A DNA stretch of 63,655 nt, filler included, from Reclinomonas americana ATCC 50394 (Eukaryota): the NCBI GenBank assembly GCA_048213135.1. It is 15 parts of 15 records of this genome, joined end to end, with 100 filler letters (N's around TTAATTAATTAA, not from the genome) between each part and the next. Parts side by side here need not be neighbours in the genome. Positions count along the whole stretch, not along the records: positions 1,883 to 19,931 come from AFZH01017182.1; positions 20,032 to 28,327 come from AFZH01017184.1; positions 28,428 to 29,585 come from AFZH01017185.1; positions 29,686 to 32,894 come from AFZH01017186.1; positions 32,995 to 34,845 come from AFZH01017187.1; positions 34,946 to 41,120 come from AFZH01017188.1; positions 41,221 to 45,759 come from AFZH01017189.1; positions 45,860 to 52,388 come from AFZH01017190.1; 7 more parts are not named here. One strand, written 5' to 3'. Below the pieces are notes generated by a model, which saw only the letters and a list, made by a program, of their open reading frames with translations, had not been told where the DNA came from and made no database searches. Shown one piece after another: positions 3,327-50,476 of this stretch. Positions within the stretch are counted from its first letter, which is position 1; each line of letters begins with the position of its first letter. The position numbers and the translations under genes were made by a program.

Positions 3327-6300
3327 ATGCGCTCGCCACACTGTCACTGCGCGTCCTTCACAAACCGGCGAGCACCATCACAACCTTTGTGTGTTCGCGA
3401 TCGCCGATTGTGCTTGATTGCGCTGTCTTGTGCGCTTGTCACGCTCCTTGCGCTGCTTTCGTCAGTGAATGTGGAGGCGGTGATAGGCAAGTGCACTTTG
3501 TGCAAGCGCGATTGAGCAGGTATCAGTGATTGACTGCTCTCTCTCTCTCTCTCTCTCTCTCTCTCTCTCTCTCTCTCTCTCTCTGAGCGCAGCATCGCCA
3601 GGTTCATCGGAGCCTCCAGCACAGTTCCAGCTCATACGAGCTGTCGGGCAAGACAGTTGCGAGCGACACGCCCTGCCTCTCAATTGTGTCCGCGCACTCA
3701 CTCACTCTTCTTCTCTTCCCTTTTCTCCTTCTGCCTTCCCCCTCGTGTTCCCCTCGTGTTCCCCTCGTCGTCTTCCCATCGTCGTCTTCCCATCGTCGTT
3801 TCCCATCGTCGTCTTCCCATCGTCGTGTTCTTCTCGTCGTGCTCTCCTCGTGTTCCCCGTGTTCCCTCTGCCCTCCCTCCCTTCTCCTTCTCCCTCCCTT
3901 CTCCCTCTCCCTCCCCTCTCCTTCTCCCTCCTTTCTCCCCTTTCTCCCTTCCATCGATCAGCGCAAGACTCAACGGTGGATGGCGCACAACCAACACTGT
4001 GGTTTGACTGGACCACCGCCTTCAATCAAGGCAACTCGGTGGTACGCGACTATGGCCTCTCCGTCACCGACTCCATGGGAGACACGAAAACGTATTCGGT
4101 TCGCCAGGCCGTCTCTCTCATTCTCTCTTTTTCTCTTGTTCCCTGTTGGCGCTGACGGTGCGCTCGTCGCAGTGTGAATCCCAATTCAGTGAGCCGCTGT
4201 GCTTTTCCATGTATCTGCGGTACACGGAGCACGGCATCGTTCCAGGCTCGCGGTATTCCGTGTCGGTAAGTGTGCAAGCGAAGGGGGTACATATCCTCTG
4301 AAGGGTGGAAGCAGATCAGCGCAAGAGAGCAATCATCGCACACTGGAGATCACACTGAAAACCGTAGACGATCGTCTCTCTTCCTCCTTGCATTGTCTTG
4401 ATTCACCCTGTTCCCTTTTTTTGCCTTGCGTTTTCTTCGCTGCCTCCCACTCCTCCACCATCCACCACCATCGTTACACTCCCTCCAGTCCTGGTTGCTC
4501 GTCTTGTTCTTGTTCACCTTCTCATTCCTCTTCCTCCCACTCACGCTCTTTCCCACTCGCGCTCCTTCCCACTCACGCTCCTCTACTGACGCTCTTTCCC
4601 ACTCACTCACGCTCTCCACTCGCGCTCCTTCGCACTCACGCTCCTCTTCCTCCCACCCACGCTCCTCCACTCGCGCTCCTCCACTCGCGCTCCTCCACTC
4701 GCGCTCCTCCACTCGCGCTCCTCCACTCGCGCTCCTCCCCACTCGCGCTCCTCCCCACTCGCGCTCCTCCCCACTCACACTCTTTCCACTTGTGCTCCTC
4801 TACTCGCCCTCTTCCAGTCGCGCTCCTCCACTCACGCTCTTTCCCACTCGTCCTCTTCCAAATCATCTCCCTCCCCTTCTTCCTCACCTACTCGCGCTCC
4901 TTCCCACTCACACTCCTCCACTCACGCTCCTTCGCACTCACGCTCCTCTTCCTCCCACCCACGCTCCTCCACTCGCGCTCCTCCACTCGCGCTCCTCCAC
5001 TCGCGCTCCTCCACTCGCGCTCCTCCACTCGCGCTCCTCCACTCGCGCTCCTCCACTCACGCTCCACTCGCGCTCCTCTACTCGCGCTCCTCTTCCACTC
5101 GCGCTCCTGTTCCACTCACGCTCCTCTTCCACTCACGCTCCTCTTCCACTCATGCTCCTCTTCCACTCACGCTCCTCTTCCACTCACGCTCCTCTTCCAC
5201 TCACGCTCTTCCTCCACACACGCTCTTCCTCCACTCGCGCTCCTCCACTCTTGCACCTTCGCACTCACGCTCCTTCGCACTCGCGCTCCTCCACTCGCGC
5301 TTCTCCACTCGCGCTCCTTCCCCTTCTCCCTCACCCCCTTCCCCTTCTCCCTCACCCCCTTCCCCTTCTCCCTCACCCCCTTCCCCTTCTCCCTCACCCC
5401 CTTCCCCTTCTCCCTCACCCCCTTCCCCTTCTCCCTCACCCTTCCTTCCCCCCCGTCTCCCTCACCCCCTTCCCCTTATCCACCACCAGGCGTACACCAT
5501 CAACGACTACGGCATGGGCGTGCTATCGACACCCATTGTCGTCACCGTGCCCTTCAGCGGCACACCCTCGGCACCCACCAACGTGACCACCAGCTATGTG
5601 GCGGCCACCAGTTTTGCCATTTCCTTCAGACCACCGGTCAATCTCGGCCACTCGCTGCTTGTCGACCCTTACTACGTCGTACAAGGTACATGTCAATGTC
5701 GGCCACCACCAACCCGGTTGTTTTTTTCCCCCCTCACTGACAGTCCTTCTCGTCACAGTCAAACAAGTCACCGAAGAGTCTTCTGGTTCTTGGCGAGAGG
5801 TCGATTTTAATGTGCAAGCGGAATCCACCGGCACACCCTTCTCGAATTCACCGTGGCAGACGCAATTCGCCGTGGTCAGCCGGTTACAGGGCGACGATTT
5901 GTCCTCTGTGCTGTCGCGCGATACGCAATACATGGCGCGCGTGCGGGCCGTGGTCGATGTGGGCTATGGCCTGTGGTCGGAAGTTGCGTGGTGGTGGTGG
6001 CGCAGCTGCAGAGTGGGTCGCTCTTCGTTGTCCTCAAGTCTAATCACCTCATGTTAGTCTGTTTTTCAACAACCCTCCTCTCTCTCTCTCGTGCCCGTAG
6101 TCCTCATCCTCAACTTGATTCCTCTTCGTCTTTACTGACCAGCTGTGTCTTACCATCACCATTATCTCTCCGTTACTCCATTATCAGCCACTCAGTCTCT
6201 CGCTCTCGCATAAACTGTCTCTCTCTCTCCGTGCATCGCTTCTACTTCTCCCCACATCTTTCTTCAGTGTGCCGCCAAAGTCGTCCTTTCTCATCTCACT

Positions 6301-50476: not shown

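Follow-up and report, generated by a model that had tools for sequence, protein, structure and literature searches.

The question raised by this locus was whether the long run of exons on the plus strand at 3327..50476 makes up one real gene and, if so, what kind of protein it encodes. The window, meaning the whole stretch of 63,655 nucleotides of Reclinomonas americana ATCC 50394 DNA that was analysed, was taken from a 108 Mb assembly of 16,441 contigs. It consists of intron-rich scaffold DNA (about 53% G+C) whose contigs are joined by 100-base placeholders, 14 in the window and 7 of these inside the gene. An automatic parse was over-fitted and contained spurious micro-exons, and a hand-built, script-checked model was used instead. 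In this model the gene ran from an ATG at 3327 to a TGA at 50476 in a single spliced frame with zero internal stops. It contained 114 exons in the window (20,625 coding bases, 6,874 amino acids), and 117 exons and 7,147 aa with the exons hidden in the gap at 19932 included; the 47-kb gene for a protein of about 7,000 aa in the original prediction was thus borne out at roughly 7,150 aa. The introns (112 GT-AG and 1 GC-AG) had a median length of 69 nt. Their most frequent donor was GTTGCG (28 of 113), followed by GTGAGT (17), and the long introns were purine-rich in the 5' half and pyrimidine-rich in the 3' half. Two donor sites were shifted afterwards for agreement with a paralog, so small boundary errors are possible elsewhere in the model.

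A collinear second copy of the gene was found on contigs C2789-C2801, which is most simply the second haplotype. It contained 111 of the 114 exons, the other 3 falling in its own gaps, and no stop in 6,717 codons. Over these codons dS was 0.12, dN 0.015 and dN/dS 0.12, and the ratio ranged from 0.014 to 0.17 across ten regions, with the lowest values in the cysteine-rich neck (0.014) and the membrane core (0.019); the haplotype counts were made on the model preceding the last 24-base exon extension. Substitutions at codon positions 1, 2 and 3 numbered 145, 84 and 587, and the third position was not outnumbered in 72 of the 73 exons with at least three changes. Splice dinucleotides were conserved at 219 of the 220 aligned sites, the exception being an alignment gap, and the start codon and the GC donor of exon 1 were also conserved. 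Both indels found in exons were multiples of three, while 28 of 36 in short introns were out of frame. The locus is a real gene under purifying selection, and very probably one single gene.

The protein was examined from its N-terminus with a Pfam scan of 82 exons, taken one by one, together with self-built profiles and hydropathy. Exon 1 (3327..3486, plus strand) carries the start codon and a hydrophobic segment at about aa 28-47 (hydropathy peak 2.46), a probable signal peptide in agreement with the original prediction, and is followed by the only GC-AG intron. Then comes a Ser/Thr-rich array of FN3-type sandwiches spanning about 2,200 aa (3962..14986, plus strand). Nine domains were matched by a self-built profile, the strongest of the 9 being the profile's own seeds, and about 15 were counted by eye; Pfam fn3 was above cut-off in 4 exons, and the many FN3 domains proposed earlier were thereby recovered. 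At 7736..8260 (plus strand) there is a glycine-rich beta-repeat insert that resembles phage virion structural proteins (7 PHROG families, best E 1.8e-8), and tblastn of the insert against 50,697 phage records gave no match. Tandem copies of this phage-virion-like repeat were also seen in open frames of more than 1,500 aa (L142 and L143 on C7490, and C8379).

Repeat units 1 to 3, all on the plus strand, have equal exon layouts. Unit 1 (15133..17670) comprises an FN3-like first half, NHL propeller 1 (Pfam NHL E 2.5e-5), an FN3-like second half and a spacer labelled cadherin-like by eye. Unit 2 (17747..19902) contains propeller 2, with the last blade and the spacer in gap 19932, and unit 3 (20119..22883) contains propeller 3 and its spacer, by Pfam and the self-built profile. 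A propeller nested between the two halves of an FN3-like domain is a weak reading, because the profile had only 3 rows, 2 of them nearly identical. These units are followed by a divergent propeller 4 (22947..24969, plus strand; Pfam NHL E 0.0012 on one exon, 2 blades by the self-built profile) and by Cys-paired Ig-like units (25040..30972, plus strand) around propeller 5 (about 25760-27738; 2 strong and 2 weak blades by the self-built profile). The region 25040..30972 gave zero Pfam matches; it is common to paralog B, whose contig C6116 it matches exon by exon. The profile, seeded from the giant protein, found 18 blades in five clusters, and with Pfam it upheld the count of about five propellers, whereas the cadherin-like and Ig-like spacers of the original prediction had zero Pfam matches and are labels given by eye only. 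An NHL-rich ectodomain of about 5,000 extra aa had been called unfamiliar, and it is indeed unusual, although NHL/FN3 arrays as such have undergone heavy expansion in this genome, with 148 matches in the 150 candidates that were scored. Intron-free frames of more than 2,500 aa with FN3-like repeats and NHL propellers also occur on C58 and C117 (L092-L095).

Beyond the Ig-like units lies a beta-rich region of about 360 aa with no family label (31042..33729, plus strand), which is conserved in paralog B and ends in an 8-nt exon. The suggestion that it was PA14-like (31042-33652) did not hold: there was zero Pfam match, and the locus was absent from the 13 PF07691 matches in the genome. A suggestive acidic motif was not kept in paralog B, and the PA14 identity was rejected for now. 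Frames of 2,600-2,900 aa with PA14 domains were seen on C1 and C2 (L135-L137), contigs of more than 1.2 Mb that are possibly bacterial DNA in the assembly. The next domain, a right-handed beta-helix of Pmp type (33793..40510, plus strand; about 1,000 aa), was confirmed by Pfam Chlam_PMP (best E 3e-10) and by counts of 11 GGA(I/L/V) and 15 FxxN motifs, and Beta_helix matched weakly. Chlamydial and trichomonad Pmp proteins carry the same repeats (PMC6701047); the giant protein differs from them in having no autotransporter barrel and a multi-pass core in place of one helix, and the beta-helix makes up one seventh of its length. A beta-rich stalk and Cys-rich neck (40511..41903, plus strand; dN/dS 0.014) complete the ectodomain. 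The Cys-rich exons (41410-41903) stand directly ahead of the membrane core, where a Cys-rich stalk had been predicted, and are ephrin-receptor-like or DUF7631-like, with both matches under cut-off (Ephrin_rec_like E 0.012, DUF7631 E 0.0025). A DUF7630 profile search of the genome gave only 1 weak match, at another locus.

The multi-pass membrane core (41965..47075, plus strand) showed 8 Kyte-Doolittle peaks of 1.55-2.73, together with a weaker helix placed at exons 98-99, where hydropathy was below 0.9, by analogy with the core of the cysteine repeat modular proteins (CRMPs). The core has more than seven helices, and probably nine, in place of the about 7 first predicted, and a cytoplasmic insert of about 120 aa separates helices 5 and 6. 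Between aa 55 and the core, hydropathy revealed no second signal peptide and no helix, with three weak peaks (1.65-1.89) in beta-rich domains only; a type I topology is implied. The acidic, Ser/Pro-rich cytoplasmic tail of 261 aa (47606..50476, plus strand) is present as predicted, with 53 acidic and 16 basic residues, and the Pfam scan recognised neither a catalytic nor a known signalling domain there.

By eye, the best counterpart of this C-terminal part is among the CRMPs. These are described as having nine helices, Cys-rich and beta-helix domains, an exposed N-terminus, a heterodimer predicted to form via the helices, and homologs in Dictyostelium (PMC9815656). The named members include Toxoplasma CRMPA/B, Plasmodium CRMP1-4, Tetrahymena CRMP1/2 and Dictyostelium Q86I19 (PMC9815656, PMC9670195). 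They are required for exocytosis, namely rhoptry and mucocyst discharge, in Toxoplasma and Tetrahymena (PMC9815656, PMC9670195), and their loss blocks exocytosis and not the assembly of the machinery (PMC9670195). The comparison was made by eye, unscored, with the first roughly 400 residues of the Toxoplasma and Plasmodium cores in S2 Table of PMC9815656. From the neck to helix 7, the Cys, Pro, Trp and Gly landmarks of the giant protein followed the CRMP-core order. Those shared as far as helix 3 were the Cys-rich neck, whose Cys spacing resembles that of CRMP cores, a basic residue at the start of helix 2 with a proline behind that helix, and a loop Cys ahead of helix 3. Further on, both have a Cys at the end of helix 4, with a short strand and another Cys after it, a Gly-x-Pro in helix 5, and, ahead of helix 6, a basic-aromatic stretch and a Trp pair. 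The CRMP-core landmarks are retained in paralogs B and C as well.

By this inspection, the gene is likely to have a CRMP-like nine-helix core, and the protein is called CRMP-like here as a working term for a likely, unscored membership. The C-terminal part had been described as a known protist architecture of unknown function; the architecture stands, while "unknown function" gives way, by eye, to a nine-helix core with a tested role in the triggering of exocytosis (PMC9815656, PMC9670195). The likeness to CRMPs extends to the signal peptide (probable here), the large variable ectodomain, the Cys-rich neck directly before the core, in which the ninth helix is a proposed one, and the long cytoplasmic tail; parallel beta-helix repeats are present in some CRMPs (PMC9815656, Fig 1 legend). 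The giant protein differs from CRMPs in that FN3, NHL and Ig-like domains fill about 5,180 aa before the beta-helix, in its far smaller number of Cys repeats and in the cytoplasmic insert, about 120 aa long, that separates helix 5 from helix 6; Kringle, MAR and lectin domains were not detected in it.

A tie of the core to fungal Flc/Pkd2 (PF06011) is a lead. S. pombe Pkd2 is of the PF06011 type, with nine predicted helices under an extracellular domain (bioRxiv 2022.08.11.503631), as is proposed here, and it passes calcium upon membrane stretch (PMC9727806). The giant protein differs in its ectodomain, which is some 40 times longer, and the 82 exons scanned gave zero match to PF06011, at low sensitivity on such short exons, and zero match to the TRP_N (ML-like) domain. 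A genome search with PF06011 gave 3 weak matches, the giant-gene locus not among them. The genome also holds a large, distant multi-pass subfamily (L108-L134; the 150 candidates scored gave 151 matches, with two or three at each locus), a member of which matched PF06011 at E 3.1e-4, under cut-off. A profile of this PF06011-like subfamily (18 rows, after 5 of 23 were dropped as over 90% identical) scored 1.6 bits against the giant core, below the best shuffles of 8.8 and 15.4. Profile-profile comparison gave 22.2 against a maximum of 24.0 in 100 block shuffles; the helix 6-7 region aligned in register, shuffled controls not being beaten, and a further alignment paired non-corresponding helices. 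In the ESM Atlas, an exon of paralog C fell with unnamed eukaryotic clusters (0.96-0.98), the nearest named family being PF06011 at 0.85 (18% of members), and the best scores of a second search were 0.79. Among the literature matches listed, none joined cysteine repeat modular proteins with PF06011 or Pkd2.

Paralogs in the same genome were informative on how the long arm arose. Over approximately its final 3,000 aa and in the core intron positions, paralog B (C6114-C6116 and two further copies) agrees with the giant gene; it differs in its N-terminal part, which contains cadherin-like repeats by eye and gave zero Pfam match. In one copy of paralog B (C206; L069 9214-9813, L070 38-275) a part is inverted relative to the rest, which reflects either an assembly error or a genuine inversion. 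The ectodomain of paralog C (C942, C2014) appears to be much shorter. Since the paralogs share the core and differ in their arms, and NHL/FN3 arrays are common in the genome, the long arm is best read as a lineage-specific accretion on a conserved core. Tandem duplication of the propeller-in-FN3 unit would have built the outer arm, along with domain swapping, which is suggested because paralogs retain the core and vary the tip. Relatives were also sought outside the genome: protein searches (proteins of up to 2,000 aa) with exon 89, a five-row helix 4-5 alignment and a 250-aa exon taken from a distant relative gave zero match, each a weak negative at this length limit, a 51-aa exon query of a representative protein library matched an unrelated repeat only, and metagenome contigs, viral contigs and a PDB sequence search yielded none. 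No report of an NHL/FN3 giant architecture in protists was found in the literature searched, most subscription journals lying outside it. What is new is the unusually large ectodomain architecture; the class itself is widespread, little-studied and already known.

Taken with moderate confidence, the giant protein is a type I surface protein, some 7,150 aa long, in the class with a variable ectodomain, a Cys-rich neck and a nine-helix core that includes the CRMPs. By analogy, the best reading of its function is that it senses contact or tension as a member of the CRMP or Flc/Pkd2-like class, with an accreted ectodomain. The signal peptide would place about 6,400 aa on the outer side of the membrane. 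They would form a long, jointed arm, whose NHL propellers and Pmp-type beta-helix may bind a surface, be it that of prey, of a substrate or of another cell. The neck, which is strongly conserved, would relay binding or pull to the nine-helix core, which probably pairs with the core of a paralog after the manner of the CRMPA/B heterodimer, paralogs B and C being candidate partners by this analogy. The core may then trigger a local response via the acidic tail, such as calcium entry, exocytosis or engulfment. On weaker grounds, it might itself pass calcium under tension, as suggested by S. pombe Pkd2 (bioRxiv 2022.08.11.503631, PMC9727806).

Such a sensor would bear on how protists detect prey and surfaces by contact and on the way in which CRMPs set off parasite invasion. 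That a free-living member combines a strongly conserved core with an interchangeable and very long arm speaks for the core as an all-purpose signalling device fitted with many different tips, and the long-, medium- and short-armed paralogs of one genome form a natural series for core function. A bolder version, which is speculative and rather unlikely, is a tethered, force-gated receptor-channel in which the arm of about 6,400 aa, with its five propellers and phage-virion-like insert, would pull on a calcium-permeable core of CRMP/Pkd2 type, with paralogs swapping tips for each surface. From domain counts, a rough estimate of the arm length is perhaps over 100 nm if extended. CRMPs themselves are not known as channels. 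If the force-gated channel were true, CRMPs and fungal Pkd2 would belong together in a single ancient class of eukaryotic channels gated by contact, and free-living protists would have a touch sensor like a tip link.

The alternative that survives best, though still unlikely, is a structural adhesin or surface-coat tether, in which the arm attaches to surfaces or keeps them apart and the core is no more than an anchor, dimerisation device and escort that passes no signal. In Chlamydia and trichomonads, repeats of the Pmp type serve in adhesion (PMC6701047), an escorter role has also been proposed for CRMPs (PMC9815656), and the tail without a catalytic or known signalling domain fits such a role. 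However, a pure anchor would have no need of a multi-pass core held at a dN/dS of 0.02, and the loss of CRMPs stops exocytosis with the machinery still assembled (PMC9670195).

More doubtful is a prey-uptake receptor that binds bacteria or particles and is internalised via tail motifs, with neither channel nor exocytic function. The bacterial-adhesin-like and phage-virion-like modules outside the cell are in its favour, as is the acidic tail, which may be compared with the acidic clusters of trichomonad Pmps; those Pmps, however, have a single helix (PMC6701047).

It is highly improbable that two or more neighbouring genes were artificially fused by the scaffold, even with seven gaps inside the gene (19932, 28328, 29586, 32895, 34846, 41121 and 45760), where the original prediction had named two (19932 and 28328). 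Three of these are spanned by no single contig in either haplotype, but the second haplotype closes the other four with single contigs: C2796, which holds all of exons 46-66, runs across 28328, where continuity had been queried, and 29586, C2799 bridges 41121 and C2800 bridges 45760. A phase mismatch from 27738 to 28912 had been seen as the weakest link, but both sides are in phase 1 and the junction lies on one contig in the second haplotype, so there is no mismatch. Gap 19932 (placeholder 19932..20031, unstranded) is open in both copies and hides coding DNA. C15674 (minus strand) and C1716, set end to end, fill it exactly with 1,930 bases containing three exons of 78, 562 and 179 nt and introns of 67, 68, 987 and 105 nt, and encode the missing last blade and spacer of repeat unit 2. 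The fill adds 273 in-frame codons with zero stops, and the suggested split by a stop and a new start inside a gap was not found there. Neither copy closes gaps 32895 and 34846, which lie within low-complexity introns; there, contig C6116 of paralog B has the identical exon order, the 8-nt exon included, with introns of about 70 nt. A fusion is further opposed by a frame free of stops and by the lack of any other signal peptide or helix from aa 55 up to the core.

Teneurins are type II single-pass proteins with a YD-repeat shell after the NHL domain. A true relative of these or of adhesion GPCRs is the least probable alternative and already largely refuted: a long modular adhesion arm over a multi-pass membrane signalling part, FN3 beside NHL propellers and weak TEN_NHL matches (E 0.003-0.045, Pfam scan) are shared in outline, but the core has at least 8 helices and zero 7tm_2 match, the neck before helix 1 is a Cys-rich repeat with zero Pfam match to a GAIN domain and 0 matches to 4 GPS patterns, there are 0 YD-type motifs and no toxin-like domain, and the type I topology is opposite to that of teneurins. 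Of the analogy to adhesion GPCRs or teneurins in the original prediction, surface sensing remains the best guess and the analogy holds loosely, whereas the GPS, seven helices, YD shell and type II topology are absent.

Other genes were identified around the giant gene. A spliced gene at 1-1420 (plus strand) encodes a zinc-dependent deaminase (Pfam dCMP_cyt_deam_1 E 5e-7), presumably a tRNA adenosine deaminase subunit, and a spliced gene at about 54260-56520 (plus strand) is 3-hydroxyisobutyrate-dehydrogenase-like (NAD_binding_11 E 0.0012, under cut-off). Two contigs numbered between window contigs, C1714 (701 bases) and C1716 (1,394 bases), are absent from the window (gaps 1783 and 19932), a case in which placeholders in the assembly can conceal coding DNA. 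Intron-free frames with BNR/Asp-box repeats lie on the minus strand at 50738-52024 and 62387-63655 (Sortilin-Vps10 profile E 9e-14 and 2e-22, respectively), the first of which has a Cys-rich end, is convergent with the giant gene and ends about 260 bases past its stop.
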